Part shown: one piece after another, positions 9,009 to 58,232 of the stretch
Position numbering within the stretch: position 1 is the first letter of the stretch
Layout: each line of letters begins with the position of its first letter
From: a virus
DNA length: 64,000 bases
Virus record (IMG/VR): IMGVR_UViG_3300036834_000211
Coordinates: 50,542-114,541 of that record
Reading direction: 5' to 3' (one strand)
Made by a program: the position numbers and the translations under genes
Notes under the pieces: generated by a model
What the model saw: only the letters and a program-made list of their open reading frames with translations
What the model was told of the DNA's origin: nothing
Database searches by the model: none

Positions 9009-9102
9009 CTGCGCGTGCACTCCAGCTTGAAGAAAAGGGCGGCCGCTATGCGAGTAGCGGTCAGTGGTACCATCAGGCTGGACGAGCCTTAGAGACGATT
9101 TC
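9009..9102 (+). repeat. Dispersed ~94-bp structured repeat, copy 1
   Basis: CTGCGCGTGCACTCCAGCTTGA...TCAGGCTGGACGAGCCTTAGAGACGATTTC; matches 32475-32568 and the reverse complement of 58142-58232. Confidence 0.8.
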
Positions 9103-9114
9103 TGAGACATACAC

Positions 9115-9684
9115 ATGAACACCCTCGCCCTTTCCACCCCCGACCAGGACGGCACCGGCTGGGACCTGGTCGTCGAGAACGGCACCCTCAAGGTGAACTC
9201 CGGTGGTATCGCACTCGCACAGGATGTGGCAAGCGCCGTCCGCACGTTCCGAGGTGAGTGCTGGTACGACTCGACGCTCGGCGTGCCGTACTTCCAGAAC
9301 ATCCTCGGCCTCCGCGTTAGCCTGCAGTTTCTGAAGCAGGCGCTTGTGACGGCTGGGCTGGTCGTCCCCGACGTGGCCTCGATCAAGTGCTTCCTGACCG
9401 GGCCGGGCTCGGGCCGAGAGATCGGTGGTCAGCTCCAGATCACCAGCTCGAGTGGGCAGGTCTCGGTGGTCGAGACCGGAAACCTGCTCGGCGTCGCGCC
9501 GTGGTGGGTGAGTGCGGTCTCGGGAGACATTGCCGCAACTCCTCCGATGGCCGGTGGAAGCGACTTCGGACCGCCGGACTTCGGACCGCCGGACTTCGTC
9601 CAAGGTGATGCTACTGCAACTCAGACTGTACTCACCGGAGGCGGGGTCCCACTTACGGGAGGGGGTAAGGTATTGACACAATGA
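9115..9684 (+). CDS. Baseplate wedge/sheath initiator (gp25-like) with C-terminal extension
   Basis: WDLVV...LAQDVASAVRTFRGECWYDSTLGVPYFQNILG; extension contains a 15-bp tandem repeat (9562-9597, DFGPPDFGPPDF). Confidence 0.8.
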   Translation: MNTLALSTPDQDGTGWDLVVENGTLKVNSGGIALAQDVASAVRTFRGECWYDSTLGVPYFQNILGLRVSLQFLKQALVTAGLVVPDVASIKCFLTGPGSGREIGGQLQITSSSGQVSVVETGNLLGVAPWWVSAVSGDIAATPPMAGGSDFGPPDFGPPDFVQGDATATQTVLTGGGVPLTGGGKVLTQ

Positions 9685-11396
9685 GGATCATCCTGCGCAT
9701 CCTCGCCGCGTTCCTGGGTGCCGTCGCGGCTAGTCACTTGGCCCACTCGCAGCAGCAGGAGATAGAGGCGTACGTGTACGGCCAGTCCCAGGCGACTCAG
9801 CCGTACTCATCGGGTCTACTCATCCCGGCAATCCCCAACCCCAATCGATTCTCCCTGCTCAGCATTCCGGCGAATGCCTTCCTGTACACCAGTGGCGTGC
9901 CCAACGCTCCCTTCCTGAGCGGATCTGGTGGCGGCTTCCAGGGATTAACGGGATCTGCGGCGACGGCCCTACTCTCCCCCTGTACCTCGACGGTCCAAGG
10001 GGTCGTCCCCACCCCGCCGAACGATGCCACCAAGTTCCTAAATGGGAAGTGCTCGTTCGCTTCCTCCGGCTCCGTAAGTCCGGACGTCATGGGCGCCCCG
10101 CACAACGGGACGTCCGACGACTCGTCAGGCTTCAGCGCAGCGCTGGCGACCGGTATTCCGGTTCAGATGGTGTGCAACGGTACTCCCTACAAGCTGACGA
10201 GTAACGTCATCATAGCCACCCCGGCGCACCTGATGGGCTGCGGGACGATCCTGGGGTCCCCGATCAATCTATCCGGTGCGTCCGCGGGAATAACCATAAC
10301 GTCGAGCGGAGTGATCGTCGAGAACGTCCACGAGGTCGGCGATCGCACTACTGGGCAAGTCGGCATAAAACTGACCGGCGGCAGCCGAGACCTCGTCCGC
10401 AATGTCCAAGTCGAGTTGGCCGACATCTGCTTCCAGCAGGGCGTGGGGGCCGGAGTAATCAACAACTGGGAGCACATCTATGGCAGGAACTGCAAGAGCA
10501 TCTTCGCGACCTTCCAGGACGGTATAGGACCGATCATCGACGAGGCACTTTACGACACCGACGTGGGCTCATACGCGGATCCCCAGGGTATAGTAGTCGA
10601 GACGGAGGGTGTATTCATGACCAGGGCCGACATCCTGGACACCACGTACCCGCTCATAATACAGTGCAACGGGGCTCACCACGCGAACGGTCCGATATGG
10701 GGGGAGTACGGGCTCAACTTCTTCGACATCTCACAGCAAGGGGTCTTGATCACCAACCAGTCCGGTGGGGGATGTTCCGTGAGGGGAGAGCACTTCCACG
10801 GGACGTGGTTTGCCACCTCCACGAACAATGGTCTGACTGTCACTACCGACTCGCTGAGCAGCATCCAGACCGTGCTGTGCGACGGGTGCCAGATTCACAA
10901 TAATGGGGCCCATGGCGTCAGTCTATCGGGTAACTCCAACGACATCATCTTCAACGGCTCCATAATCTCCGGGAACGGGAGCGCGAGCGGCAGCGCCTAC
11001 GACAACGTCAAGATAGCCACCACCGCCCCGCTGGACACCATCGTGTTCAACGGTGGTATAATTGGTAGGGCGGAGGGCGAGACCGCGCTTCCCAAGTACA
11101 ACTTGGAGATAACGACTCCGTCGTACGTCCGGATAACCGGGACGTACTTCGATGTGGGTGGGGTGACAACCGCGAACATCGTGAACCCCGGAGGTGCCAA
11201 CATACAGACGGACGGTCTCTCCGGATTCGAGACTACGGCATCGACGCTCGGTCCCTGCACAACTGGCAACGCCGGGAACAGGACGTCGATATCCGACGCG
11301 ACGTCGGGGACGTTCGGAGCCCCCGTGGGAAGTGGGGGCTCCCACCACGTACTGGCATACTGCGACGTATCGGTATCTGGTTGGGTAGTCCATTAG
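9681..11396 (+). CDS. Beta-helix tailspike/depolymerase-like protein with signal peptide
   Basis: MRIILRILAAFLGAVAASHLAHS|Q; GAPHNGTSDDSSGFSAAL pectate-lyase-like entry motif followed by beta-helix-like repeats. Confidence 0.75.
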   Translation: MRIILRILAAFLGAVAASHLAHSQQQEIEAYVYGQSQATQPYSSGLLIPAIPNPNRFSLLSIPANAFLYTSGVPNAPFLSGSGGGFQGLTGSAATALLSPCTSTVQGVVPTPPNDATKFLNGKCSFASSGSVSPDVMGAPHNGTSDDSSGFSAALATGIPVQMVCNGTPYKLTSNVIIATPAHLMGCGTILGSPINLSGASAGITITSSGVIVENVHEVGDRTTGQVGIKLTGGSRDLVRNVQVELADICFQQGVGAGVINNWEHIYGRNCKSIFATFQDGIGPIIDEALYDTDVGSYADPQGIVVETEGVFMTRADILDTTYPLIIQCNGAHHANGPIWGEYGLNFFDISQQGVLITNQSGGGCSVRGEHFHGTWFATSTNNGLTVTTDSLSSIQTVLCDGCQIHNNGAHGVSLSGNSNDIIFNGSIISGNGSASGSAYDNVKIATTAPLDTIVFNGGIIGRAEGETALPKYNLEITTPSYVRITGTYFDVGGVTTANIVNPGGANIQTDGLSGFETTASTLGPCTTGNAGNRTSISDATSGTFGAPVGSGGSHHVLAYCDVSVSGWVVH

Positions 11397-11407
11397 TCGT
11401 GGCTTTC

Positions 11408-17847: not shown

Positions 17848-17874
17848 GAGCCCCTGCCTCGGGGCTCTTTTTTT
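17848..17874 (+). terminator. Rho-independent terminator (possibly bidirectional)
   Basis: GAGCCCC-TGCCTC-GGGGCTC followed by T7; the opposite strand has ATTTT after the stem. Confidence 0.75.
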
Positions 17875-17888
17875 GACATACCCAAGCA

Positions 17889-18380
17889 TTATACCGCCAT
17901 TGACATCAACATCTCGGTCACGGCTGAGAAGGCCACGTTGACTCTCCCTTGCGACAATCCCAATCTCTTCCGAAAGTAGGCTCGGGCCTTGTGGGCAGTC
18001 AGGTCCATCGCCGCCACGTCGTTGAGTACCAAATCCACCATCACGCGCGCGTCCTCAGGCAGGTCGCGGATCAGCTCGGTCAGGAGCAGATTTCGATCTG
18101 GTGCTGGCATCGACCGATCTGGCATCCCCTCGTCGAGTTCGTGTGTAATGGGATGTACGCGCTTGTGCCGGTCGGTTATCCCACACAGGTGACGATAGAC
18201 GCAGTATGTGGCAAACGTGTTGAATGACGACTTGCGCGGGTCGTACTCGACGTTACCGAGGACGCCCTGCTCGGCATTCCAGCGGGCTATCCGAGCCTCC
18301 TGCAGCAGGTCGTCGAGGTCCATACCGCTCGTGGTGGAAAACGAGTAGGCGTACTTGAGTACCGCCGGGTGGTCTTTCAT
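17889..18380 (-). CDS. Sigma-70 family (ECF-like) RNA polymerase sigma factor
   Basis: DLDDLLQEARIA..YDPRKSSFNTFATYCVYRHL (region 2) and LIRDLPEDAR (region 4 entry); ATG at 18380 coupled to the upstream stop. Confidence 0.75.
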   Translation of the reverse strand: MKDHPAVLKYAYSFSTTSGMDLDDLLQEARIARWNAEQGVLGNVEYDPRKSSFNTFATYCVYRHLCGITDRHKRVHPITHELDEGMPDRSMPAPDRNLLLTELIRDLPEDARVMVDLVLNDVAAMDLTAHKARAYFRKRLGLSQGRVNVAFSAVTEMLMSMAV

Positions 18381-19519: not shown

Positions 19520-19631
19520 TATAAAGGCCTGCCCTGCAGAAAATTGCAAGCGAAAATTGCACGTTTCCGCAAAAAAAAAATGCATCAAACCCCAAAATAG
19601 GGCTTGCAGTTTTCTGCAAACCTGCTACTAT
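19520..19631. promoter_or_regulatory. Divergent promoter region with three (T/C)TGC-N8-GCAA operators (19534-19549, 19557-19572, 19604-19619)
   Basis: Rightward TTGCAG-16-TACTAT; leftward TTGCAA-17-CTTTAT; A10 tract between them. Confidence 0.7.
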
Positions 19632-19656: not shown

Positions 19657-20745
19657 ATGCCAAGTCGGTCGGACGCATTATGGTATCGGAGGGAGTGGCA
19701 GCGGGAGGTGCAGCGGGCTCAGCATGTCGGCTATAGCTACTTCGGTCGTCCTCAATCACCCGTCATCCCGTGGTACCAGGCAGAGATCGCATTCCTGAGG
19801 CGCCGGATCGAGAGCCTGGCCGTCAACCGCATCGCTCAGCAGCAGACAAGACCCGCACTGGATCTGCTGGCACACCCGGTTGCGGAAACGGCTCCCGTAG
19901 CACTCAATGTCCCATCGGAGCCGAGGCCGACGACGGATGTTCCGACGTTCGGGATTGAGATCGAGTGCATCATGCCACAGTCGATGACCCACTCTCGATT
20001 GGCGGGCCTTCTAAGCCAAGTTGATGGGATCCAGGCCTCTGCAGAGATGTACAACCACCAATCCAGAGATTACTGGAAGATCGTAACTGACGGGTCACTG
20101 GGAGATTATAGCAGGGGTGCTGAGTTAGTCAGCCCGATCCTGCGGGGAGAAGAGGGCTTCGAGCAGGTCCGCAAGGTGTGCGGAATTCTCAATGCCAACA
20201 ATGTCAAGGTAAATCGCCGGTGTGGCTTCCACGTCCACGTGGGCGCTCGAGATCGAGGAGTGTCGTTCTTCCGTAGTCTATTGATGCTCTATGCCCACTA
20301 CGAGCCGGTGTTAGACACGTTGGTGTCCCCCAGTCGTCGGGCGAGTGGGAACACGTACTGCCGGTCGACAAAGGTCCTGGTTGACGGCCGCAGGCAGGAG
20401 ATCGAGAGCGCGGTGGACATCGATGGGCTGACGAATGCCTATTCGAGGAGCGGACGTAATGACCGCGGGGGTGACCACGGGAGACTTGTCAAACTTAATC
20501 TGGCCGCATACTGGCGTCACGGGACGGTCGAATTCAGACACCACCAAGGGACGGTGAATGCTGAGAAGGCAGAGACGTGGATTCGGTTGTGCATTGCACT
20601 GGTGGAGGCCGCTGGTGCTGGCGTCGAACCCGGTGAGGAGACAATTGACGCACTGGCCGAGAAGGTTGGTATGGTTGAGACGCTACCGTACTGGCGGCGC
20701 CGGCAGTTGGAGCTGAGTCACATCCAAGTGACGGAGCGGACGTGA
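19657..20745 (+). CDS. Putative amidoligase (COOH-NH2 ligase type 2)
   Basis: TFGIEIE, WKIVTDGSL, ELVSPIL, CGFHVHVG, GTVEFRHHQGT motifs. Confidence 0.9.
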   Translation: MPSRSDALWYRREWQREVQRAQHVGYSYFGRPQSPVIPWYQAEIAFLRRRIESLAVNRIAQQQTRPALDLLAHPVAETAPVALNVPSEPRPTTDVPTFGIEIECIMPQSMTHSRLAGLLSQVDGIQASAEMYNHQSRDYWKIVTDGSLGDYSRGAELVSPILRGEEGFEQVRKVCGILNANNVKVNRRCGFHVHVGARDRGVSFFRSLLMLYAHYEPVLDTLVSPSRRASGNTYCRSTKVLVDGRRQEIESAVDIDGLTNAYSRSGRNDRGGDHGRLVKLNLAAYWRHGTVEFRHHQGTVNAEKAETWIRLCIALVEAAGAGVEPGEETIDALAEKVGMVETLPYWRRRQLELSHIQVTERT

Positions 20746-20993
20746 AGGAGAGTGAGATGTACAGGACGAATGATGGTGCAGTGTTACGATCGACCGAGCA
20801 GGTGGACATCGTCCGCGAGCTCCGTGAGATGTCCAACACGCCGACCGAATCTGACTCGCAGTTCATGCGGGAGACGGCCGATCGGATTCGGGCCAAGCTG
20901 GATCGGCGCGTCCGGTACCACAACGAGGTGGTGTTCGTAGCCGACCTGTTGGAGGCCGGTCTACTAATCGACGACGACAAAGGAGAAGGTTGA
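20742..20993 (+). CDS. Small protein commonly associated with amidoligase genes
   Basis: IVRELRE...FMRETADR...FVADLLEAGLL; coupled between amidoligase and GGCT. Confidence 0.65.
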   Translation: MKESEMYRTNDGAVLRSTEQVDIVRELREMSNTPTESDSQFMRETADRIRAKLDRRVRYHNEVVFVADLLEAGLLIDDDKGEG

Positions 20994-21529
20994 TGTTGTA
21001 CTGGGCCTACGGATCGAATCTAAGCGTCGAGGCGATGAAGAGACGCTGCCCCCGAGCCAGGAAGATCAGCAGTCTGATCCTCCCTGACGCCCGCCTGGTG
21101 TTTAGGCACGTTGCCGATGTGGAGTACCACAAGGGGGCCTCCTGCCCGGGCGGCCTGTGGAGGATCACCGAGCAGTGCGAGGCGGTGTTGGATCGCTACG
21201 AGGGAGTGCGAGGCGATCACGGACTGTACAGTAAGATCTACATCAAGCTCCAGTACAATGGTAGGGAGCGGCGCTGTTTGATATACCAGATGAATGAAGA
21301 TGGCATTGCCCCGCCGGGCGAGGGATACTTGGGAGTGATCGCACAGGGTTACATGGACTTCGACCTGGATCTGGCGCAGCTCGACGAGGCGGTGATGAGA
21401 TCGTGGGGTGAGAAGAACAGGACGCCGGCAATCAACAGGCGCATTAGGAGGCGCAAGGACAGGCCACTGGCTCGAGACGTGTTCGAGGTGGTGCTGGGCG
21501 ACGGCTACGAGAGCCTAGGACGGGAATGA
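20990..21529 (+). CDS. Gamma-glutamylcyclotransferase (AIG2-like)
   Basis: YWAYGSNL...MKRRCP...LDRYEG...P..GYLGVIAQGY. Confidence 0.9.
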   Translation: MMLYWAYGSNLSVEAMKRRCPRARKISSLILPDARLVFRHVADVEYHKGASCPGGLWRITEQCEAVLDRYEGVRGDHGLYSKIYIKLQYNGRERRCLIYQMNEDGIAPPGEGYLGVIAQGYMDFDLDLAQLDEAVMRSWGEKNRTPAINRRIRRRKDRPLARDVFEVVLGDGYESLGRE

Positions 21530-21530
21530 G

Positions 21531-22250
21531 ATGTCCCAGGCAGAAGCGACCGGGAGACTTAGACTGCTCAGGGCTGTCGTTGCCTCCCGCGCCGAGCTCA
21601 CACACAAGATCCTGGATGCGCGCACACTCGATCGCGACGTCGAGTCCTTGGTCCGCCGGGGGTCTGAGCGTGGACGTCAGCGCGCCGCCGTTCGGCTCCG
21701 AGCCTTCCTCCCCGCGGTCTTCGAGTGGAGGCGGGTTACTAGTGGTCTGCTCGGGGCCTACCTGGAGGCCGCTAGATATCCGATCATCCAGACGCCGTCC
21801 GACCCAGGACAGACCCAGCCCTCAGTGGCCGTGGCGTATCTCGTGCTGGGTACCGAAGAGATGCTGACCGCGACCGGGCTGTGGACCCTGGAGGTGCCGG
21901 ACCACGCTCTCCGACGGGCGCTCGAGCGCGACCGCCCCGGCGACGTCGAGGGGAAGATCCGGGAGGCCCACGCGGCTCTCCTGAGGGCCTCGATCGACAG
22001 GAGGCCGCCAATCGGCGGCGAGTTCCTGATACCGACCTCCGGGCCTGGGGTGTTCGTGGCCGAGTGGATTCCAGGCAAGCTGAGGTCGAATGGCAAGCAC
22101 ATGGTGTACGCCCGCGCCCGAACTTGGCTGCACGACGACCAGCTCTCCTCGAGCCAGGCCCGCCAGGTGCTCTCATCCGCTGCGAGTGGGGAGGCGTCCC
22201 TGTACGACGCTGGACTGCTGACCCCGGTGGTACTTAGAAAGCAACTTTGA
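21531..22250 (+). CDS. Hypothetical protein
   Basis: 239-aa ORF in operon; DHALRRALER and ARTWL motifs. Confidence 0.65.
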   Translation: MSQAEATGRLRLLRAVVASRAELTHKILDARTLDRDVESLVRRGSERGRQRAAVRLRAFLPAVFEWRRVTSGLLGAYLEAARYPIIQTPSDPGQTQPSVAVAYLVLGTEEMLTATGLWTLEVPDHALRRALERDRPGDVEGKIREAHAALLRASIDRRPPIGGEFLIPTSGPGVFVAEWIPGKLRSNGKHMVYARARTWLHDDQLSSSQARQVLSSAASGEASLYDAGLLTPVVLRKQL

Positions 22251-22335
22251 GGCTCTCACATGCAGATTAGGGTCCCTGCGTATGCAAGGTAGCACTCGTC
22301 TTCTCAATCAAGCTGGACGGCACGCTCCGTCCAGC
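22237..22335 (-). repeat. Dispersed structured repeat, degenerate copy
   Basis: TCAAGCTGGACGGCACGC core with a degenerate GAAAgCaaCTTTgAGGCTC end at near-identical spacing; perfect hairpin GCTGGACGG-N6-CCGTCCAGC. Confidence 0.65.
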
Positions 22336-22363
22336 GCTGGCTCGATCGTCGAGGTATCCTAAA

Positions 22364-22777
22364 TTGGAACGTTACGTTATCTACGAAATTATCGGACGAA
22401 AAGTAGGATGCTGTAAGAATCTTAAAAAGCGTATTCGATGGTACGAGAGGATAGAAGGTAAGGCTCCTAAGACTATAGTTCTAGAAATCTTCTATGGAAA
22501 AACAGACCAAGAAGCAGGTGATCGAGAATGGTATTGGGCTGATAAACGAGGTTACTCACGCGGAAAACATTATTCAGTAAGAAATGGTCTTAATACCGGT
22601 ATAGTCGGTAGAATTGGCGCTCGCCGTCTTACGGAAATAACAACTTCCAAAGAACGATCTAAATGGGCTCGTAAAGGAGGGTTTCGACAGAAAATACAAT
22701 GTCCTAATTGCGGTAAGATAGGAGGATTAGCTCCTATGAAGCGCTGGCACTTTGACAACTGCCAGCATAAGTACTAA
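22364..22777 (+). CDS. Putative homing endonuclease (GIY-YIG-like)
   Basis: AT-rich; VIYEI..KVG...LKKR N-terminus, E.YW, C-terminal CPNCGKIG...KRWHFDNC module. Confidence 0.6.
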   Translation: MERYVIYEIIGRKVGCCKNLKKRIRWYERIEGKAPKTIVLEIFYGKTDQEAGDREWYWADKRGYSRGKHYSVRNGLNTGIVGRIGARRLTEITTSKERSKWARKGGFRQKIQCPNCGKIGGLAPMKRWHFDNCQHKY

Positions 22778-23691
22778 TGAGTATTACAGACATCTATATT
22801 CGCTACGGTGTACCACACCGAATCGACGCAGGTCGGGGCGGGTGGGTCTCGACCCACTGTCCCTTCTGCACCGGCAGTGCCGACTACCACCTGGGATTCA
22901 GTCTCGAGCACTCGTACTTCCGCTGTTGGCGGTGCGGATGGCACGACGCTATCTCGACGTTGTCGAGCCTATGTCACGTAGACCGCAGCGCGGCGTTCGA
23001 CATCTACCAATCAATCAGATCCGGTCCCAGCGGTCCCGTCCGCGGTGCCAAGGACAAGGAAGCGCAGGTCAGGGTCAACCTGTCCCTGTACAAGCGTCCC
23101 CCGGGCGTCGACTCGATGGCGACTAACCACCGACACTACCTCGAGGGTCGAGGATTCGACCCAGATCAGATCGAGCGCGAGTGGGGGGTGATGGGGACGG
23201 GGCCGATGTCGTACCTCGACTGGATCGACTACCGATTCAGGCTCTTCATCCCCGTGCGGTGGAACGACGAGGAGGTGTCCTTCCAGACCCGCGACGTGAC
23301 GGGCAAGTCCGATCGCAAGTACATCGCCTGCCCGACCGAGCGCGAGATCAAGCACCACAAGTACGTCCTCTACGGTCGGCAGGAGTGCTGGGGCGAGACC
23401 GGGATCGTCGTCGAGGGAGTCACCGACGTCTGGCGCTTGGGACCGAGGGCCTGCGCCACATTCGGCATCCAGTACACCGCCGAGCAGGTGGCCGTCATCG
23501 CCCGGGCGTTCCGGCGCGTCGCGATAGTGTTCGATTCGGAGCGTCAGGCGCAGGCGCAGGCGAGGAAGCTCGCAGCCCAGCTGCGCCTGTGGCTTGAGAC
23601 CCCACCGATCGTGGTGGACTTGGGAGCAGGCGTTGACCCAGGATCTATGAAGCAAGATGACGCGGATCACCTGGTGAGGGAATTGACATGA
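22777..23691 (+). CDS. DNA primase (Zn finger + TOPRIM)
   Basis: CPFC...CWRCG zinc finger; IVVEGVTDVW, FDSE, DPG TOPRIM motifs. Confidence 0.9.
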   Translation: MSITDIYIRYGVPHRIDAGRGGWVSTHCPFCTGSADYHLGFSLEHSYFRCWRCGWHDAISTLSSLCHVDRSAAFDIYQSIRSGPSGPVRGAKDKEAQVRVNLSLYKRPPGVDSMATNHRHYLEGRGFDPDQIEREWGVMGTGPMSYLDWIDYRFRLFIPVRWNDEEVSFQTRDVTGKSDRKYIACPTEREIKHHKYVLYGRQECWGETGIVVEGVTDVWRLGPRACATFGIQYTAEQVAVIARAFRRVAIVFDSERQAQAQARKLAAQLRLWLETPPIVVDLGAGVDPGSMKQDDADHLVRELT

Positions 23692-23873
23692 ATGAAGATG
23701 TCTTAAAGGAGCACTTAACCAGAACTAGAGATCTGCTGTGCGAGGCGAGGCAGTATGTCGAGATCGTCTACAACGAGACGTCTCATGGCCCAGTCGGTGG
23801 CAGTGCTCGGCGGGACATGGAAATCTTATTGAGAAATATCGACGAGGCACTAGATAACCGGTACGGAGTGTGA
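23688..23873 (+). CDS. Hypothetical protein
   Basis: ATGA-coupled 61-aa ORF. Confidence 0.55.
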   Translation: MNEDVLKEHLTRTRDLLCEARQYVEIVYNETSHGPVGGSARRDMEILLRNIDEALDNRYGV

Positions 23874-29242: not shown

Positions 29243-29812
29243 ATGGATTGGGATCGAGTTCGCACCGGCGTAGTCGACATCCTGGTGGGTCTAGGCTGCG
29301 ACTTGAGTGATCCGAACTTCCTTGGCACCCCCGATCGGGTCGTCGAGTCTTACAAGGAGATCTTCGGCGGCCTCGACGAGGTGTCTCAGAAGATTGAGGA
29401 CATCCTGAGCAGTTCGTTCCCGTGTAGTCACGATCAGCTCGTCGTCGCACGAGGTATGGAGGTGTACGGGGTCTGTCCTCATCACCTACTACCGGTTCGG
29501 TACTCGGTCGTCGCGGCCTATCTCCCCGGGTCCGCACCCGGTGGACGCGTTGTTGGGTTGAGTAAGATCTATCGGCTCGTCAAGCTGCTGGCTGGTAGGC
29601 CCGTTCTACAGGAGCAGATGGTCAACGACGTTGCCGAGGCGTTGATGCACATCCCTGGTTGTCAAGGATCGGGGGTCGTCGCCCACGGCGAGCACTTGTG
29701 TGTTCGGATGCGCGGGGTACAGCAGGTCGACAGTGTCGTGACGACGAGCAGCCTGCGCGGTGTCTTCCTCAGTGATGGTGACGTCCGAGCCGAGTTCATG
29801 TCCCTGCGTTAA
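29243..29812 (+). CDS. folE: GTP cyclohydrolase I
   Basis: TPDRV, CPHHLLP, GLSKI, LQEQM, HLCVRMRGV, TTSSLRGVF. Confidence 0.95.
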   Translation: MDWDRVRTGVVDILVGLGCDLSDPNFLGTPDRVVESYKEIFGGLDEVSQKIEDILSSSFPCSHDQLVVARGMEVYGVCPHHLLPVRYSVVAAYLPGSAPGGRVVGLSKIYRLVKLLAGRPVLQEQMVNDVAEALMHIPGCQGSGVVAHGEHLCVRMRGVQQVDSVVTTSSLRGVFLSDGDVRAEFMSLR

Positions 29813-29825
29813 TGGGGGTTTCCTG

Positions 29826-30020
29826 ATGATAGTGACCTTGATTGTTTTCGTCTGCAGCCTATATTCTGCAGGTGAGTGCAAGAACGTTGAACATTCCGAG
29901 TCGTTCCCAAGTTTTGAGGCGTGTCAGTCCAGGATTGACGAGCTTCAGGAGCAGGACTCTCCGATGCCAGACGTGAAGGTAATTGGTTACACCTGTCGGG
30001 ATGTGACTGATGAAGACTGA
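29826..30020 (+). CDS. Small Cys-containing exported protein
   Basis: MIVTLIVFVCSL...C...FPSFEAC...YTC. Confidence 0.55.
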   Translation: MIVTLIVFVCSLYSAGECKNVEHSESFPSFEACQSRIDELQEQDSPMPDVKVIGYTCRDVTDED

Positions 30021-30696
30021 CGAGCGTTTCGTTGTGACGGGGGCGTCTTCTGGTCTTGGCAGGGAGATCTATCAGTACCTCACCTGTCGATATCAGACTT
30101 CTCAAGTCATTGGGGTGTCCCACCACGGGCCCGACATCGTGACCGACTTGTCCAATCAGATGGGCCTCCTGTCGGTAGTTGCGGAGCTGGTGTCGTGCTC
30201 ACCGCCACATCTGTCGAGACCCATCCGCTGCCTGGTGAACTGCGCTGGTGTGCTGCACCTCGGAGATGGCGACGATGCGAATGCGGATCAGATCTTCAAC
30301 GTTAACTTCTGGGCGCCGTATCACTTGTCGATGAATCTCAGGGAGTGCTTTGTGTCCGGTGAGAGCAGCGTCATAAACGTGGCCTCGGTCTCCGGTATGA
30401 TCGCCGATCCTGACACACCCGTCTATGGATCAAGTAAGGCTGCTCTCATCTCGCTGACTAAGAGCCTGGCGATTAAGTGGGCTCCCCACGTCCGAGTGAA
30501 TTGCATCTCTCCTGGATTCTTCGATACGAATCTAGTCCCCGAGCCCACCCCGCAGCATCTGATCGATCGAGTGCCGCTGGGCTTCGAGGCCTCGACTGGG
30601 ATGATAATCTCTGCGGTCGAGATGCTATTGAGCTGTCCGTACGTGACTGGTTCGAATGTCGTGGTTGATGGAGGACTGTCGTGCAGGGCAGTGTGA
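30010..30696 (+). CDS. Short-chain dehydrogenase/reductase
   Basis: TGASSGLG, NCAG, YGSSK catalytic YxxxK, VNCISPG, VDGG. Confidence 0.9.
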   Translation: MKTDERFVVTGASSGLGREIYQYLTCRYQTSQVIGVSHHGPDIVTDLSNQMGLLSVVAELVSCSPPHLSRPIRCLVNCAGVLHLGDGDDANADQIFNVNFWAPYHLSMNLRECFVSGESSVINVASVSGMIADPDTPVYGSSKAALISLTKSLAIKWAPHVRVNCISPGFFDTNLVPEPTPQHLIDRVPLGFEASTGMIISAVEMLLSCPYVTGSNVVVDGGLSCRAV

Positions 30697-31739
30697 CACC
30701 TCGGTACAGTTGCATCTTCATCTCGCGTGCCTGTCCGCGTGCCTGTTCGTACTGTCTCAGCAAGGACGTCCGCGGTGCAGGATCACTGCTCACACCGAAG
30801 GGGTGGGCCGATGCCTTGCGCATACTCGAGTCCCACGGCATCGTCTTCCACCTGATACTCGGGAACGAGCTGTTCACCTACCCGGATCCGGTGGGATTAG
30901 TCGAGGCGCTGAGGCCGTTCTGGGGCCGCTACGCAATCTACTCGACCTTCCCACCCGGCTATGCGAAGCGGTACCTGGACCCTTGCATCGAGGCGGGTCT
31001 GTACAACATCTCCGGTGGAGTGGACGTCCCGGCGGGTATGAAGACTGGCGATCGTCACGTTGATCGGAAGAGCAGTGAGGTGCTGTACTGGCTCGACTAC
31101 TGTCACACCCACGGTGTGCCAGACGTCCAGGCGACCGTGACGATCCACCGGCACAACTACGATAAGCTGGAGCCACTCCTGGACTACTGCACGGAGCGAG
31201 ACATCTGGGTCGGATGCAGTCTGGTTGAGGCGAGTCCCGATGGGAAGCACGACTTCTACGGTTCGGTCGACTCGATGCGCGACTGGTTGATTCCAGAGAA
31301 CGAGCGCGGCAGGTTTAGGAGTGCGATGTCCCGACTCGCCAGCCAGGTTTCGTCGGGTCGGTGGAAGATGCAGGTTCCACCGTCGTACTTCGAGGAGATG
31401 GGAGAGCGCGAGGTCGATCGAGATCCGTGGCACTGCAGCCTCCCTTTGCTGATCCACGTGGAGGAGGACGGTGTCCTCCGCGCGTGCTCCTACCGGGGTG
31501 GACTGGACGAGCGCTACACCGTGTTCGACCTGCGCGAGGGCGGCTCCTTGTCGATGTCGCGGTATATTGAGATGCAGCAGAGGAAGACGAGACAGTGCCC
31601 GGGCTGCGGGGTCGGCGGGGGAGCGTGGAGCTACTGGTACATGGCAGAAGAATGGCAGAAGGGCCTCGTCGAGCTGGGCGACCAGGTGTTCCAGCGGCAC
31701 GTTCCCGGTTACGAATTTGAGAGGACGAGGCAGAAATGA
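30693..31739 (+). CDS. Radical SAM enzyme with C-terminal Cys (SPASM/twitch-like) domain
   Basis: CPRACSYC (CxxxCxxC); C...DG.LRAC...CPGC. Confidence 0.85.
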   Translation: MTPRYSCIFISRACPRACSYCLSKDVRGAGSLLTPKGWADALRILESHGIVFHLILGNELFTYPDPVGLVEALRPFWGRYAIYSTFPPGYAKRYLDPCIEAGLYNISGGVDVPAGMKTGDRHVDRKSSEVLYWLDYCHTHGVPDVQATVTIHRHNYDKLEPLLDYCTERDIWVGCSLVEASPDGKHDFYGSVDSMRDWLIPENERGRFRSAMSRLASQVSSGRWKMQVPPSYFEEMGEREVDRDPWHCSLPLLIHVEEDGVLRACSYRGGLDERYTVFDLREGGSLSMSRYIEMQQRKTRQCPGCGVGGGAWSYWYMAEEWQKGLVELGDQVFQRHVPGYEFERTRQK

Positions 31740-32470
31740 GTGATCCTATCATCTACGTGTTGCTGAGCGGAGGGATCGACAGTGCCACCGCACTGGGCCT
31801 CGCCGTTGAGAAGGTGGACGAGGTGCGATGCGTTACGATCGACTACGGACAGCGTCACCGCCGCGAGATCGAGGCTGCCGCTGCCCTGGCTGAGATATAC
31901 GACTGCGAGTACGATCTCATCTCGATGCCGATGGGACGGACGATGCTGACCGATCCGACGATTGAGGTGCCCGACGTCGACTATAGCGAGATCATCGGCG
32001 TATCACCCACCTACGTCCCATTTCGCAATGGTCTCATGCTGTCGACGGTGGCTTCTTACATTGCGGGTCGGCATCACGACCTATCTCAAAGGTTTATCGA
32101 CCCTGGTGATGGCGGCATTGGAAAGCCACTCAATCCTGATTACGACCGAGACTGTTTGATCTACTGGGGGGCCCACGCTGAGGATGCAGCCGGCGGGGCG
32201 TATCCGGACTGCACTGCCGAGTTCGTGGGTGCGATGTCGTGCGCGATTGCCATCGCAACGTCGCATAAGGTTAGATTGGTGGCACCCTTCGTCGCGATGT
32301 CGAAGGCCGAGGTTGTCGAGCGAGGGTCCCTACTGGGCGTGTCGTATCGGTGGACGTGGAGTTGCTACAAAGGGGGTGAGAAGCACTGTGGGGTCTGTCC
32401 TACGTGTCGAGCTCGCAAGAGGGCCTTCCTCGATGCGGAGGTTGCGGATCCGACTGAGTACGCCGAGTAG
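31736..32470 (+). CDS. queC: 7-cyano-7-deazaguanine synthase
   Basis: LLSGGIDS, DYGQRH, TYVPFRN, YPDC, WSCY...CGVCPTC. Confidence 0.95.
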   Translation: MSDPIIYVLLSGGIDSATALGLAVEKVDEVRCVTIDYGQRHRREIEAAAALAEIYDCEYDLISMPMGRTMLTDPTIEVPDVDYSEIIGVSPTYVPFRNGLMLSTVASYIAGRHHDLSQRFIDPGDGGIGKPLNPDYDRDCLIYWGAHAEDAAGGAYPDCTAEFVGAMSCAIAIATSHKVRLVAPFVAMSKAEVVERGSLLGVSYRWTWSCYKGGEKHCGVCPTCRARKRAFLDAEVADPTEYAE

Positions 32471-32474
32471 CCGC

Positions 32475-32568
32475 CTGCGCGTGCCGTCCAGCTTGACAAA
32501 AGTATTTTGGGCTATCGCTATAGCCTCCAGGCTCCTCGCTGGGATGGACGAGCCTTAAAGACGATTTC
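32475..32568 (+). repeat. Dispersed ~94-bp structured repeat, copy 3
   Basis: CTGCGCGTGCCGTCCAGCTTGAC...TGGACGAGCCTTAAAGACGATTTC. Confidence 0.8.
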
Positions 32569-32581
32569 CTAGGAGAGCAGT

Positions 32582-32953
32582 ATGACTGAGACTTTTACTC
32601 GTTTGGTGGACAAGCATCATTCTCCATTGATTTTAAGGAAATATACGAAATGGGGCTTTCCTGTTTATGTGTCGATCATTGCCGATAACGATTTGAGTGA
32701 CTTTGATGAAGTGGTAGTTGGGTATGTTGAGGAACATAAGGTTGAGGGGTGGGTTAATGATATTCAGAGATTGCGTAATCTTGCTGGTGAATTAACTGAG
32801 TATTTGTGTCGAAAATATGATAAAACTGAGGGGGTAGGTGTGATGCTCTACGTCGACAAACTGTTTGTGGTCTCTCTATTCGGGGATCATATGAATCATG
32901 GTTCGTGCAAACAAGAATTCTATGATTTAGTAAAGATATCTGCCCATATTTGA
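32582..32953 (+). CDS. Hypothetical protein (AT-rich; possibly T-fold)
   Basis: 123 aa, GGAG RBS; fold guess is weak. Confidence 0.6.
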   Translation: MTETFTRLVDKHHSPLILRKYTKWGFPVYVSIIADNDLSDFDEVVVGYVEEHKVEGWVNDIQRLRNLAGELTEYLCRKYDKTEGVGVMLYVDKLFVVSLFGDHMNHGSCKQEFYDLVKISAHI

Positions 32954-32963
32954 GGTCACCAGG

Positions 32964-33623
32964 ATGAGAAAAGGGTACAAGCAGACATTAGCACATCGAA
33001 TTTCTCGATTGGCTTGGTTGAAAGATAGTGAGAAACTTAGACAAGCGATTGAGAAGTCGTCGACATCGCAGCGAGGTATTCGACGCCCTTGTATATCCGG
33101 AAGCAGACATCCAAATTATGGTAATATTGGTCATTTGTCTGATCGCAAGTGGGTGACTAATGGGATTGAGAATAAACGGATTTATATTAATGAAGAGATT
33201 CCATTGGGTTGGCGGTCTGGGATGTTATTAAAGAAGAAGAGTAGTAAAGTACACCGTTGTTTAGTTGGTTCATTTACGAATATTGAATGGGAGGGATTAA
33301 AGCGATACTACGATTTTAGATGTCATTGCTGTCGAAAACAAGAACCGGAGGTTAAACTTGAGAAGGATCATATAGTTCCGGTCAGTCTCGGGGGATTGAA
33401 TATTATTGAGAACATTCAGCCTCTTTGTGTTCGATGTAATCGGATTAAGAAAGCCCGTATTATTGCTTATAGAGTTAATAGGTTTCATAGTCTAGTTCGT
33501 ATGCGAGAACGACTAGAGTCTATTCTAAGGAAAAGAGCTGCGTTAGGTTTGCTTGATATTGAGTTTACTAGAATGCTGGCCTTCGAATTGGGGGTGCAGC
33601 TTCCGACGTCGATTGGTATTTGA
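32964..33623 (+). CDS. HNH homing endonuclease
   Basis: CHCC...DHIVPVSLGGLNIIENIQPLCVRCNRIK; SGSRHPNYG and KWVTNG DNA-binding motifs; AT-rich. Confidence 0.9.
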   Translation: MRKGYKQTLAHRISRLAWLKDSEKLRQAIEKSSTSQRGIRRPCISGSRHPNYGNIGHLSDRKWVTNGIENKRIYINEEIPLGWRSGMLLKKKSSKVHRCLVGSFTNIEWEGLKRYYDFRCHCCRKQEPEVKLEKDHIVPVSLGGLNIIENIQPLCVRCNRIKKARIIAYRVNRFHSLVRMRERLESILRKRAALGLLDIEFTRMLAFELGVQLPTSIGI

Positions 33624-34108: not shown

Positions 34109-34145
34109 TTACGTAAGAAACGGCCAATGATCAGGAGAACATAAA

Positions 34146-35081
34146 ATGGGAAGACTAATAGTCGTACCTCAGTATCCCGCCAGACTTAGGTATCAAGAGT
34201 GGTATCCGCAGCGGATGCGAGAGTATGCCAATCACTTTGACGAGGTCATCTTCCTCAAGCCCGACACTGAAGCCCTGCTTCCACCATTGGGTGGATTCTC
34301 TCCCGTCGACTTGGCATTAGACTACGAGCTCTGTCAGATCAGGACGTACCTCGATCTGACACTCGAAGATGAAAACGTGCTGTTGCTGTGCGACCTCAGC
34401 TTCCCCGGGCTGTTCGCCTCCGTCCTGTACCACAAGCGCCCCAGTCGTTGCTTTACCATCTGCCACGGGACGTCGAGGAACAAGCACGACTACTTTGCCG
34501 ACTGTCGATCCAGTAAGTGGAGCGTCGAGGGCGGGCACAGTGAGCTGTTCGAAGGGGTATTCGTCGCGACTGAGTACCACCGCCGGAAGTTGGGTTGGTC
34601 CAACTGCCACGTCGTCTCCTTCCCACTCCCTCGAATTAGCGAACTGGGGGATCTTCACCCTTCCATCGTACGTGCGTACCGACCGAGTCGTATCGTCAGC
34701 GTTGCCCGACCCGGCCTGCAGAAGGTGAATCTGGAGGTCGAGCAGGAGATCGAGGAGATGACGGGCAGTCGGATCGTCAGGTTCCACGAGACGGGTGGAC
34801 GGACTTGGTCCGACTATTACTCGTTCCTGCGGGACGCTGACTTCCTGCTGGTCTCGTCGAGGGAGGAGACCTACGGCTACCAGGTAATTGACGCGCTATC
34901 GGTGGGTACGGTTCCCATTGCCCCCCGCGCGTTGTCGTACCCCGAGTTGCTGCCAGCTCGCTGTCTGTACGAACCCGGCAGTGCAGTGGATGCGGTCGCT
35001 GTGATGGAGCGGTATCCCACTTGTCCGGCCTTGTGGGAAGATACATTCATCAGGGACACTGCTCGTATAATGCAAGCATGA
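34146..35081 (+). CDS. GT-B glycosyltransferase (GT4-like)
   Basis: SREETYGYQVIDAL..GTVPIAPRALSYPELL nucleotide-sugar-binding motif. Confidence 0.85.
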   Translation: MGRLIVVPQYPARLRYQEWYPQRMREYANHFDEVIFLKPDTEALLPPLGGFSPVDLALDYELCQIRTYLDLTLEDENVLLLCDLSFPGLFASVLYHKRPSRCFTICHGTSRNKHDYFADCRSSKWSVEGGHSELFEGVFVATEYHRRKLGWSNCHVVSFPLPRISELGDLHPSIVRAYRPSRIVSVARPGLQKVNLEVEQEIEEMTGSRIVRFHETGGRTWSDYYSFLRDADFLLVSSREETYGYQVIDALSVGTVPIAPRALSYPELLPARCLYEPGSAVDAVAVMERYPTCPALWEDTFIRDTARIMQA

Positions 35082-36409
35082 CGAAGAGATTCATCTTCAT
35101 GCTCGACAGTGGTGCCTACTCGGTGTGGGCTCGATCCAATTCGAACCCGCATCGATTGGAACTGCGTCGTCGAGTGCTCGAGGCGTTGAAGGTCCACGGG
35201 AGCAAGAAGAGAGCGGCTGAAGAATTGGGTATCCCTCTAGGTCTGGTCCAGACCGTATCCAGTGACGAGGTCGAGCGCAGAGTGACGCTTGAGAACTATG
35301 CCGAATTCGTGAGTGGACACAGACACCTGTTCCGCGGTGGTGTGTGGAATTTTGACGTCATCGGGTCCGACAAGGGCAGTTATGAGAACTGGCTCGAGTT
35401 GCGGCGTCTCGGTGTGGACACCATCCCCGTGCACCACGTCGGCGATGACGTATCGTACTTGACGAAGTATCTCGACGAGTGCGAATTCGTCGGGATTGGT
35501 GCCATTGCCAAGATGGATACGAACAGTAGGATACACGGTCTCGATGACGTGTGGAAGTCTCACTTGTTGACGGGCGACGGATCCCCCCGCTGTCGAGTCC
35601 ACGGACTCGGCTTGACTGACACTTCGATCGTCTTGAGGTACCCTTGGTACTCCGTCGACAGTACGAAGACCATTGCTGCGGCTGCGTACGGTTCGGTCCT
35701 GATCCCAAACTTGAGTAGATCCGAGATCTCATACGACGACCTCATCCCCGTCTCGATAAGTAATCAGTCGAGGAGGGTCGAGTTGCCGAAGGGCAGGTCA
35801 TCGTCGAGTTCAAATTTCTACTTCCTTCCCCAGCGTACTCAAGAGGTACTGTACAAACTGACTGCGGATCTTGGATTTGGGATTAGTCGGACTCTAGAGG
35901 GTCGGGTCCTGCGATCGAAGATGACTTCTCGTAAGAGGCAAGATTCGGTATGGGTCAATGGATTGGGTATCGAAGCTGCTGTCGAAGTGCAGGAATCTGA
36001 GGTTTCGAACAACTTGTCGTCGAGTTGGCGGGCTAGGTATGCTTTTAATCTGCTGATGGTTGATCGGTTTGTCGAGCATTGGCGTCAACTCGGTCGAGCA
36101 ATTCGGATCTACAACGTGGCGGGCGGATCTCACGTGCTCGACGTCTTTACTTCTGTGTCGGACAGTCACCCGGCAAACAGGTCACTCGTCAGTTTCGCTA
36201 AGATGTCCGACAACCTGGTAACCAGATTGGAATGTGCGATCAATGGAGATACAGAGAGAAGTACTATTGTCGGCAATCAAGCTCGTACTGCCGGCGATGG
36301 CTCAGAAGGAACTCTTCGACCAGTCAAACAAGATCGCGTTCGCCGGCGGGAAGGTGGTGGCGTTCAACGACGCCGTCGCAATACTGCATCCCCTTCCTGG
36401 CGGCCTTGA
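35078..36409 (+). CDS. TGT-fold transglycosylase (DpdA-like) with an inserted HTH
   Basis: MLDSGAYS, FDVIG, IPVHH, RVHGLG, YPWYSVDS motifs; ATG at 35078 coupled to the GT stop; 3' end overlaps the clamp gene. Confidence 0.75.
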   Translation: MTKRFIFMLDSGAYSVWARSNSNPHRLELRRRVLEALKVHGSKKRAAEELGIPLGLVQTVSSDEVERRVTLENYAEFVSGHRHLFRGGVWNFDVIGSDKGSYENWLELRRLGVDTIPVHHVGDDVSYLTKYLDECEFVGIGAIAKMDTNSRIHGLDDVWKSHLLTGDGSPRCRVHGLGLTDTSIVLRYPWYSVDSTKTIAAAAYGSVLIPNLSRSEISYDDLIPVSISNQSRRVELPKGRSSSSSNFYFLPQRTQEVLYKLTADLGFGISRTLEGRVLRSKMTSRKRQDSVWVNGLGIEAAVEVQESEVSNNLSSSWRARYAFNLLMVDRFVEHWRQLGRAIRIYNVAGGSHVLDVFTSVSDSHPANRSLVSFAKMSDNLVTRLECAINGDTERSTIVGNQARTAGDGSEGTLRPVKQDRVRRREGGGVQRRRRNTASPSWRP

Positions 36410-44336: not shown

Positions 44337-44351
44337 TAAGCGAATTCGGGT

Positions 44352-44400
44352 TATGCAAGGTATCACCCGACCTCTCAATCAAGCTGGACGGCACGCGCAG
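44352..44400 (-). repeat. Dispersed structured repeat, partial copy
   Basis: TATGCAAGGTAtCACcCGaCcTCTCAATCAAGCTGGACGGCACGC nearly identical to 22281-22325. Confidence 0.75.
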
Positions 44401-44417
44401 ACTGACGCAGGCTTGAT

Positions 44418-53791: not shown

Positions 53792-54097
53792 TTGGGAATG
53801 AGAATTCACTCGAGTAACTCCATTGGCAGAGTTCTCAGAGAAGCTCGAGAGGGTCTGAGACTTAGTCAGGGAGATCTAGCGGCACTGCTTGGTATCTCAC
53901 CTTCGTGCCTGAATCGGGTTGAGCATGGTAAGCGAGCATTCGACACGGATTGGATGGTGCGGATGCCTTCCATCATGTGCTCCGCTGTGAGGAGTGCACT
54001 CCTCTTGGAGTTCGAGGATGTTCGGGGACCCCGCGTCGTCCCTCGATTCCGCAGGAGATCGTGTCCTCTTGGTGAGGGCGTACAGATTAGTGAGTGA
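53792..54097 (+). CDS. XRE-family HTH transcriptional regulator
   Basis: LREAREGLRLSQGDLAALLGISPSCLNRVEHGKR. Confidence 0.85.
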   Translation: MGMRIHSSNSIGRVLREAREGLRLSQGDLAALLGISPSCLNRVEHGKRAFDTDWMVRMPSIMCSAVRSALLLEFEDVRGPRVVPRFRRRSCPLGEGVQISE

Positions 54098-54963: not shown

Positions 54964-54979
54964 AGGGGAGTAGAAACAT

Positions 54980-57900: not shown

Positions 57901-58138
57901 TCTGGCCAACGCACCAGCTTCGATCGAGGAGTCCATCGAGCGCATAGCTGAGGCGTCCGAGATGGCGGACCGGGAGTGGCAGGCAGTTCGTCCCGATGAT
58001 CTACTGGTGGCCTATTCCGAGGCTAAGGTCTGGCAACCGACCGGGGATCCGTGCCCTCGGTGCGGCTCGCTACTGCGACGGAGCGGGACCTGCCGCTCGT
58101 GCTCGAACTGCTCGTACGACGAGGGGTGCAGTGGCTAG
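54980..58138 (+). CDS. nrdJ: Class II (B12-dependent) ribonucleotide reductase
   Basis: PNSPQWFNTG, QPHACFI, SGGTTRRAAKM, NPCAE, APTGTI, SKTVN, YRDGSK, C-terminal Zn ribbon. Confidence 0.95.
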   Translation: MKFTRVLTADQPFDFGVTAWIRWKTVDTVIAATDGSVIFEQRGVEVPEQWSQNAANILAQKYFRKAGVPADGEAMARHRENGMPDWLWASTPLRASAAMTGPETSARQVFHRMAGCWTYWGWREGMITVEEDARVFYDEVYASLAFQYAAPNSPQWFNTGLHWAYGIEGPDSGQWYVDDVDARLGHFPVRRIHNSYERPQPHACFIQTVEDDLVNPGGMMDLWTREARLFKHGSGTGSNFSKIRGKGELLSGGGVSSGLMSFLRVGDRSAGSIKSGGTTRRAAKMVVLDADHPEIEDFIDWKASEEYKAACIAVGSRVIHDRLVGVPRLQARRVPRYDDVLGDEFGCIPQSLIERARVGEDNWPVYEANSFEGEAIETVSGQNSNNSVRVSNEFLRRVDADESHWLTARTTGDVVRSIMARDLWLRLCHAAWASGDPGVQFDDTINEWHTCPTDGRINASNPCAEYLFLDDTACNLASLRLTRFLPLDDDALTKFEHVVRLWTVVLEISVHMASFPSEAIARNSHLYRTLGLGYADLGGLLMRLAIPYASDEGRALAAGLTALMTGVAYRTSAEMAQEVGTFPRWEANEECMRRVLCKHANGLRSDGTQNIRDRCMSAWVSVIHAPSFRNAQVTNLAPTGTISFVMDCDTTGVEPDFALVKEKKLAGGGSMRIVNQAVPEALGRLGYTDGISKVIVDNIEKGLGWGPPFGVSKPHMSVFACAGDISADDHVRMVATVQPFLSGAASKTVNLPRDATIDDVDRVFRLAASLGVKTISIYRDGSKLSQPLSAGNVLQAIRPELDVLADLDPDEFEEEREEKQAGARPDPPGGRIAGPSPERVAPSDGVSGHSLHRGAREYLPWRREHGWTQKIKIGQDRQSVFLRVSEYPDGRPGEVFLEIAGEGSTLRALANCLAISISVGLQRGVPVSEYVDQLVGLKFEPAGYVEGHDRIRFASSIADYIGRELGISYLARDDLANAPASIEESIERIAEASEMADREWQAVRPDDLLVAYSEAKVWQPTGDPCPRCGSLLRRSGTCRSCSNCSYDEGCSG

Positions 58139-58141
58139 ATG

Positions 58142-58232
58142 GAAATCGTCTACAAGGCTCGTCCAGCCCGATGAGAGCAGGGGCCGCCATATGGGTAGCT
58201 CCCAAGCCTTTTGTCAAGCTGGATGGCACGCA
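58142..58232 (-). repeat. Dispersed structured repeat, copy 5 (inverted)
   Basis: GAAATCGTCTACAAGGCTCGTCCAGCCCGA...TCAAGCTGGATGGCACGC; same 72-nt spacing of conserved ends as copies 1 and 3. Confidence 0.8.

Follow-up and report, generated by a model that had tools for sequence, protein, structure and literature searches.

An eight-copy intergenic cassette of an uncultured tailed phage, read as a possible promoter with a conserved leader

Promoter classes that depend on phage-encoded sigma factors are known from SPO1 (gp28 and gp33/34), T4 (gp55), phiEco32 (gp36) and Salmonella phage 7-11. Their motifs are short, at 8-35 nt, and almost always in sense orientation. A different kind of repeated control unit, the promoter-early stem-loop (PeSL) cassette, was described in the T4-type phages RB49 and phi1 (Arbiol et al. 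2010, PMC2839356). It combines a consensus sigma-70 promoter (-35, 16-18 nt, -10) with an AT-rich upstream region and is present in about 50 copies per genome, clustered in hyperplastic regions next to ORFans (PMC2839356). PeSL is the closest described system to the element analyzed here, a ~100-base non-coding cassette in the genome of an uncultured tailed phage (IMG/VR record IMGVR_UViG_3300036834_000211, hereafter G000), in which each of eight copies fills an intergenic gap between gene blocks. The G000 record comprises 114,541 bp with 61.5% G+C (IMG/VR class "linear", CheckV 94% complete), and its last 64 kb are referred to as the window. The cassette is most likely a promoter-plus-leader control unit, not a folded RNA gene. 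An earlier note on the window proposed a non-coding RNA or processing motif, an element for antitermination loading or a small mobile or recombination element, but not the reading now considered most likely, in which the phage's own sigma factor acts on a promoter-type cassette.

Copies are numbered E1-E8 by genome order, with E4-E8 located in the window (Table 1). All five copies listed for the window by the earlier note were recovered at their places. The 5' box GCGTGCnnTCCAGCTTGA occurs there exactly five times, compared to a mean of 0.68 occurrences at up to 3 mismatches in the shuffled window, and the 23-nt 3' box GGACGAGCCTTnnAGACGATTTC exactly three times, compared to none in shuffles. 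Scanning of the whole genome added three copies upstream of the window (E1-E3). A profile of the 5' half matched eight copies at E values of 1e-13 to 1e-19, the next match having an E value of 0.09; a 3'-box profile matched five copies and nothing further, and a covariance model returned the same eight copies at 76-117 bits. Eight strong matches followed by a gap indicate that the family is discrete and not the top of a graded motif.

In the alignment of the eight copies, on which the structural comparisons below are also based, the element extends ~25 nt further 5' than first described, up to the upstream stop codon, and in E1, E2, E4 and E6 the stop codon of the upstream gene lies inside its 5' end. 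The order of parts is the same in all copies: a loosely conserved upstream box, (A)ATCGAGCCTGC or GTAGCCTGCC, is followed by GCGTGCCG, TCCAGCTTGA, 14 variable bases and the GCTACC block (GCTCCC in E2, GCTATG in E4, GCTATC in E6 and GATACC in E7), after which six copies have (C/T)ATAGC-like bases. The 5' module common to 8/8 copies thus consists of GCGTGCnnTCCAGCTTGA, 14 nt and GCTACC, with the blocks at fixed distances and the bases between them variable. E1, E2, E4, E6 and E8 run on to GGCTGGA and the 3' box, whereas E3 and E7 lack this box and that of E5 is degenerate. The fixed spacing claimed previously holds in the sense that 59 nt separate the T of TCCAGC from the first G of the 3' box (GGACGAGCC) in 5/5 full copies; the figure of 71-72 nt was not reproduced. 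A gene starts 5, 12 and 13 nt past the 3' box in E2, E4 and E6, respectively. The box has no Shine-Dalgarno core. In E1 and E8 no gene comes next in its direction, which speaks against a role in translation; the box may instead serve elongation control through the NusG paralog of the phage described below. The 18-nt 5' box of the antisense copies E5 and E7 is identical to that of E6, suggesting that the 5' half is selected independently of local sense transcription.

Nearly all genes of G000 are on the plus strand. The four copies of the virion region, E1-E4, have the same orientation as the genes and lie at module borders, with E4 ahead of the baseplate genes. In the region of replication and nucleotide metabolism, E6 is in sense orientation, bringing the total to 5/8. 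The other three copies there are antisense to the genes on either side, as the earlier note had reported for the copies at 22.3 kb, 44.4 kb and 58.2 kb: E5 precedes the primase gene, E7 separates the genes for the gp32-like and RecA-like proteins, and E8 follows the ribonucleotide reductase gene. Neighboring copies are never closer than 10.2 kb (P ~1.5e-4, whether eight points or eight gene junctions are drawn at random). A divergent minus-strand promoter directly adjoins the start of the portal gene (genome 19346) and leaves this gene no space for a promoter of its own; plus-strand transcription must therefore originate at E1 or pass through it, which speaks against a forward terminator at E1. 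For the 49-kb virion block no promoter was found, the late genes have no other recognizable promoter, and a crude dyad search for another late-promoter motif gave nothing clear.

We take the element, with a rough probability of 0.4, for a DNA-level transcription control cassette of this phage lineage, comprising a promoter for the phage-modified RNA polymerase and a conserved leader. The 5' module, i.e. the GCGTGC box, TCCAGCTTGA, the fixed 14-nt gap, GCTACC and a pyrimidine-A step ~6 nt further on, would be recognized by host RNA polymerase reprogrammed by the phage, most plausibly through its own ECF-like sigma factor. Two blocks at fixed spacing, CCAGCT-N17-GCTACC, are found in 8/8 copies (block variants included) of a phage that encodes a candidate cognate sigma factor, and the putative geometry CCAGCT-N17-GCTACC-N5/6-purine, with the two blocks as presumed -35 and -10 elements, would fit a promoter of the sigma-70 family. 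The 23-nt 3' box of the five full copies would then be a conserved transcribed leader, possibly a loading or pause site for the RfaH/UpxY-like NusG paralog. The four sense copies of the virion region would head the portal, protease/capsid, neck/tail and baseplate blocks, and the three antisense copies of the replication region would make late antisense transcripts, with segments exchanged among copies by recombination.

Several observations favor a promoter. No part other than the 5' module is shared by all copies, and the blocks within it stand at exact distances; E3, E5 and E7 keep this module only, and conservation ends where the transcription start would lie. The module is perfect in antisense copies without the rest of the element, which is not predicted for an RNA signal acting in sense transcripts. 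Furthermore, the phage encodes its own sigma factor, its virion genes have no other recognizable promoter, the portal gene has no space for one, E1-E4 point with the virion genes at the heads of modules, and the spacing of at least 10.2 kb is such as operon heads would show. The anatomy, with a stop codon, promoter box, stem-loop and next start codon, resembles that of PeSL. Other observations weigh against a promoter and keep the probability near the above value. The conserved blocks do not resemble those of ECF promoters, for which the known consensus has AAC at -35 and CGT at -10. The conserved stretch of ~70-115 nt is longer than a promoter needs, and three of the four replication-region copies are antisense. 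A canonical -10 is absent, the -35-like TTGACA lies 20 nt from TATAGC, and a sigma-70 scan calls no copy. Finally, a relative with a sigma factor of the same family (G001, see below) has neither the cassette nor an analogous repeat at the syntenic junctions, implying that the cassette is not required by this phage group.

Table 1. Copies of the cassette and transcription-related features of G000. Positions refer to the window unless marked as genome positions; scores are those of the covariance model.
Feature	Position	Strand	Score (bits)	Parts and setting
E1	genome 18226	+		after terminase genes, before portal and head-morphogenesis genes
E2	genome 29696	+		before protease and major head protein genes
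E3	genome 40141	+		before neck and tail genes
E4, full copy	8989..9102	+	106.8	upstream-gene stop TAG 8989-8991; 5' box 9013-9030; inner hairpin GGCCGCTA/TAGCGGTC; 3' box 9080-9102; baseplate-wedge gene starts at 9115
E5, intact 5' module, degenerate 3' box (~60% identity)	22232..22347	-	90.2	5' box at 22308; own upstream hairpin GCTGGACGG/CCGTCCAGC; antisense, between 239-aa gene (21531-22250) and AT-rich insert preceding primase gene
E6, full copy	32468..32568	+	100.3	QueC-like gene stop TAG 32468-32470 inside element; 5' box 32479-32496; hairpin GGCTAT/ATAGCC; 3' box 32546-32568; AT-rich 123-aa gene from 32582, then HNH endonuclease gene
E7, 5' module only	44337..44417	-	75.7	5' box 44379-44396; entire 81-nt gap between gp32-like gene (end 44336) and RecA/UvsX-like gene (start 44418), antisense to both
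E8, full copy	58142..58253	-	110.6	3' box 58142-58164; 5' box 58214-58231; extra upstream half-site giving GCTGGA-N12-TCCAGC; antisense, between class II ribonucleotide reductase gene (stop 58136-58138) and 121-aa gene (58252-58617)
Early-type promoter	genome 19297-19314	-		
Divergent early promoter pair	19534..19619 (genome 70075 and 70143)	- and +		at the GC-skew turn
Early-type promoter	62530-62547 (genome 113071)	-		
NusG paralog promoter	62583-62611			TTGCAG-N17-TATACT
ECF-like sigma factor gene	17889..18380	-		163 aa
alpha C-terminal domain protein gene	61076-61546	-		156 aa
NusG paralog gene	62675..63166	+		first gene of the plus-strand run leaving the window end

The sigma factor gene lies 1.2 kb downstream of the early-type promoter at 19534-19551. 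Its product matches Sigma70_r2 with 26.3 bits against a cut-off of 24 bits and TIGR02937 with an E value of 1e-6, below the cut-off of that family; metagenomic homologues at 41-62% identity are mostly labelled sigma-24 family by JGI. The longest open reading frame (ORF) of this gene (217 aa) probably starts too early. The NusG paralog, which has its own promoter, is closer to RfaH (E 8e-16) and UpxY (E 5e-15) than to housekeeping NusG (E 1e-9). Its leader (62612-62674) contains the 9-nt core CGGTAGCGT at 62615-62623, which we take to match the 12-base ops site of E. coli at 9 positions, and also GCGGTAGC at 62661. This core may be a candidate loading site, although it could be there by chance, since the 6-mer GGTAGC is not enriched genome-wide (58 found versus 76 expected). 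The third transcription-related protein joins an N-terminal half of no recognized family to the C-terminal domain of the RNA polymerase alpha subunit (Pfam E 4e-22); its gene adjoins an SNF2 helicase gene and lies downstream of the early-type promoter at 62530-62547. Such a free alpha C-terminal domain could compete for UP elements or activators.

The early-type promoters, strong and of host type, form a second repeat family, unlike the cassette, and consist of an A/T tract, GCTTGCAGTTTTCTGCAA, six bases and TAnnnT. In total, five host-type promoters were found, including that of the NusG paralog, all of them early-type and sigma-70-like; genes for the ECF-like sigma factor, the alpha C-terminal domain protein, the SNF2 helicase and the NusG paralog lie downstream of such promoters. 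The inverted repeat GCTTGCAGTTTTCTGCAA over the -35 region resembles an operator.

The earlier note had described covarying stems, the outer one held by G-U pairs in one orientation only. Full copies can indeed form a 10-bp outer stem (TCCAGCTTGA with TC(A/G)GGCTGGA) and, beyond a symmetric 10x10 internal loop, an inner hairpin of 6-12 bp. All copies have the inner hairpin, six of them in one register, and 72% of the cells in the two stems are paired versus 26-45% with slid partners. However, only one pair is fully compensatory (columns 55/70; C-G in three copies, G-C in E6), and covariation is not significant, with 110 of 500 shuffles reaching the observed score in a test whose power is low with eight paralogous copies. 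The forward strand has more G.T wobbles, but in 6/8 copies the fold of the reverse complement is at least as stable. Folding z-scores are mostly ordinary, between +1.0 and -1.8, and only E2 and E3 fall clearly below their own shuffles. The core of E3 is closed by another inverted repeat, GCCTGCGCGTG/CACGCGCAGGC, with 11 perfect bp, and that of E7 by CTGCGCG/CGCGCAG, while in E5 and E8 the TCCAGC box pairs with an upstream GCTGGA (GCTGGA-N12-TCCAGC). Inverted repeats recur around the core, which does not by itself show the strand and molecule in which they matter. Rfam gave no match at gathering score over the window; at E<=10, searches with two copies returned nothing for E4 and, for E8, one plant microRNA family (13 bits, E 7.7), taken as chance.

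These stems could belong to a transcribed signal in polycistronic messages, either a site of processing or stabilization by RNase III/E or a signal in RNA or the non-template strand that loads the RfaH-like NusG paralog. Such a signal would be an imperfect hairpin with a 10-bp outer stem, the 10x10 internal loop, an 8-bp inner stem and the 3' box. The excess of paired cells, the hairpin register kept in six copies, the compensatory pair and the forward-strand G.T wobbles are in line with it, as are the different closing pairs that replace the outer stem in E3 and E7, the position of 5/8 copies in sense exactly between cistrons, and the need of the encoded specialized NusG paralog for a cis site. 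Neither significant covariation nor one-strand fold stability above shuffles was found, however, and no credible Rfam match exists even at E values up to 10. In addition, two antisense copies (E5 and E7) keep a perfect 5' box although the 3' side of the supposed outer stem is missing from them, the element contains no ops consensus, the 9-nt core of which occurs instead in the NusG leader, and a syntenic relative lacks the element altogether. An RNA signal is doubtful, and the non-coding RNA proposed previously is the least supported of the earlier options, given the Rfam, covariation and folding results and the two antisense copies with a perfect 5' half. Antitermination loading may still apply; the presence of a NusG paralog provides a context for it, but the ops consensus is lacking in the element. 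Reading the reverse strand, the cassette could also be a terminator or insulator, in which the inner hairpin is followed by the T-rich run CTTTTGTC (the complement of GACAAAAG) and which stops antisense or early transcripts, such as that of the minus-strand gene pair ending at E1. In E1, the reverse strand has an 8-bp G+C stem followed by TCTCCTTTTGTC, ~40 nt past the stop of this gene pair, and E5, E7 and E8 face plus-strand transcription in this orientation. Yet a terminator scan calls no copy on either strand, although it does call a textbook bidirectional intrinsic terminator at 17848-17867 (GAGCCCC..GGGGCTC, then 7 T) inside the minus-strand sigma operon, showing that the phage uses ordinary terminators where needed. 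The T run is 4-8 nt away from the stem in most copies and is weakest (TCTCAATC) in E5 and E7, precisely the copies placed to stop plus-strand transcription, making a terminator very unlikely.

A site acting in duplex DNA without promoter activity is another, rather unlikely, explanation. A phage protein, for example the helix-turn-helix protein encoded next to E1 at genome 17831-18202 or the alpha C-terminal domain protein, would bind to the inverted half-sites (TCCAGC...GCTGGA and GCTA...TAGC), which would serve in repression, in genome organization or as recombination hot spots that shuffle modules. The layout TCCAGCTTGA-N10-GGCCGCTA-N6-TAGCGGCC-N10-TCAGGCTGGA is symmetric, E5 and E8 carry GCTGGA-N12-TCCAGC, and two early promoters have TCCAG(G/A)TTGA 12 nt ahead of the -35 hexamer, at about -57 to -48. 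A related palindrome, GGTAGCTACC, occurs at four sites versus a fraction of one expected, and the even spacing, the two copies bordering gene indels and the patchwork nature of the copies also fit such a site. Half copies, however, have no symmetric partner, the best conserved part is the asymmetric 3' box, which has no inverted mate, and a uniform orientation in the virion region is not needed by an orientation-free site. The patchwork is evident in E3, in which the upstream box is closest to that of E7, the next 10 nt are identical to E8 and the right arm of the hairpin is identical to E6; likewise, E1 and E4 share 25 identical upstream bases. This similarity points to segments being swapped among copies by recombination or gene conversion, in support of the recombination idea among the earlier options. 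By contrast, spread through the genome as a miniature mobile element (MITE-like) is highly unlikely. The element is lineage-specific and dispersed in both orientations, is absent from relatives and has sharp ends where AT-rich inserts abut. Nevertheless, it lacks both target-site duplications and terminal inverted repeats, apart from AATCG/CGATT in some copies, as well as the empty junctions in relatives that would mark a MITE or Correia-like element. The spacers are similar to those of element-free G001 at E7 (81 versus 79 nt) and E4 (123 versus 84 nt), and the spacer at E8 is longer in G001. No transposase was noticed among the annotated genes, for which no dedicated search was made, and even spacing is not expected from random insertion.

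G001 (IMGVR_UViG_3300036834_000217, 57.4 kb) was reached through the sigma factor, which is 48% identical to that of G000. Its proteins are 45-91% identical to those of G000, and it is collinear with the 58.8-114.5 kb part of that genome. It contains no copy of the element, and at the syntenic counterparts of the E4, E5, E7 and E8 junctions its sequence is unrelated, whereas the early promoter motif is kept (TCTTGCGGTTTTTCGCAA). Two copies had been placed by the earlier note just before AT-rich inserts bearing endonucleases. This agrees with the 123-aa and HNH genes after the 32.5-kb copy and with an AT-rich ORF abutting the 22.3-kb copy, which has a weak homing-endonuclease match (phrog_655, E 1e-3). 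G001 lacks both this insert beside E5 and the 7-deazaguanine gene cluster around E6; E5 and E6 are the only copies that border variable DNA. Gene calls in the latter, QueC-like cluster (29243-36200) have no counterpart in G001 20653-23693; judging from this comparison, the cluster is probably a lineage-specific insertion. G001 has a non-coding repeat of its own, arrays with a 36-nt period (CGGTACTCTC-N8-CGGCTCGCTC-N8) in four intergenic gaps (L037 2860-2960, 6240-6400, 6985-7190 and 8270-8440), three of them in the sigma-factor operon, and these arrays are absent from the syntenic gaps of G000. Beyond this relative, the element was not found in 50,697 phage records (megablast, tblastn) nor in 80 loci around RecA-like genes (25-62% identity, 414 kb). 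The exact two-box pattern gave no match in IMG/VR and seven in 185,579 genomes, the latter in unrelated phyla, at about the number estimated for chance and none scoring with the covariance model. The 3' box alone matched two contigs in JGI metagenomes, both times within coding sequence and without other parts of the element.

Other promoter types and functions were considered and rejected. A host sigma-70 promoter would have a 20-nt spacer and no -10. Sigma-54 promoters have TGGCAC-N5-TTGC, with GG and GC 10 nt apart; no conserved GG-N10-GC was seen among the copies when the boxes were read by eye on both strands. A T7-type promoter was dropped for want of a match to single-subunit RNA polymerase families, which is weak evidence, the control genomes of that search also being silent. 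A promoter inside the 3' box would lie at unsuitable distances from the start codons, and a small ORF inside the element and pairing of a box with another genome site were likewise dropped.

A few features of the surroundings may be added. The palindrome GGTAGCTACC is located at genome positions 27120, 40161 (inside E3), 100278 and 113204, the last two corresponding to window positions 49737 and 62663, and its half-site is the GCTACC block of the element. After the SNF2 gene, two small minus-strand genes at 58662-58945, coding for a 60-aa Cys-rich and a 34-aa hydrophobic protein and overlapping by ATGA, were missed by the crude composition-based gene calls. A GTCCTC/GAGGAC hairpin at 58623-58644 marks the convergent junction.

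A more specific version of the promoter-plus-leader cassette, which we regard as distinctly unlikely, is a composite operon head, with a promoter for the phage's own ECF-like sigma factor joined to a leader on which the RfaH/UpxY-type NusG paralog is loaded. Every ~10-13 kb, late transcription would thereby be both initiated and protected from termination, and the reversed copies would send termination-proof polymerases against early genes. If so, the cassette would be the first described example of a cis-acting site for a NusG paralog encoded by a virus. Phages with their own sigma and elongation factors are good models of host polymerase reprogramming. Three such parts are found here, namely, the ECF-like sigma factor, the RfaH-like NusG paralog and the free alpha C-terminal domain, and an element in eight copies provides a short, testable list of sites for these factors.

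Compared with known phage-sigma classes, the cassette shares the pairing of a phage sigma factor made early with a few nearly identical sequences of non-host type ahead of later gene blocks. It differs in the conservation of ~70-115 nt, the hairpin inside and the three antisense copies, and here the link between sigma factor and promoter is one that we infer. As in RfaH/ops and UpxY systems, a NusG paralog closest to these families stands at the head of a long gene run, and the leader after the putative start would be a plausible place for loading. Unlike in those systems, the ops consensus GGCGGTAGnnTG is not found in the element, which shares only the TAGC core, and the best ops-like 9-mer lies in the paralog's own leader. 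The start-associated sequence (SAS) and extended SAS of cluster K mycobacteriophages (Pope et al. 2011) reportedly consist of a 13-bp box that includes the ribosome-binding site, a few bases before start codons, and an inverted-repeat pair upstream at variable distance, repeated 10-20 times in intergenic gaps. The cassette is similar in having a conserved box near start codons, preceded by inverted repeats and repeated in intergenic gaps; however, its 3' box lies 5-13 nt from the start codon, has no Shine-Dalgarno core and is also present where no gene follows (E1, E8). The closest likeness is with PeSL. Both are short intergenic units that extend from the stop codon of one gene to the beginning of the one after it, with the stop inside E1, E2, E4 and E6 and the start shortly past the 3' box in E2, E4 and E6, and both have a promoter box, putative in our case, with a stem-loop between or over the promoter elements and G-T pairs in the stems, which is matched here by the inner hairpin of all copies (PMC2839356). 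Both are also repeated through the genome, tied to gene indels and able to recombine with each other (PMC2839356). In contrast to PeSL, the cassette has no canonical -10 and its upstream box is G+C-rich, its eight copies are evenly spaced at the borders of core modules and not clustered in hyperplastic regions, three of them are antisense, and a conserved 23-nt leader is added. If the cassette is only a recombining promoter unit, it would help annotation and be unsurprising, and it would carry the PeSL concept beyond T4-type coliphages, to a group of G+C-rich myoviruses unrelated to them.

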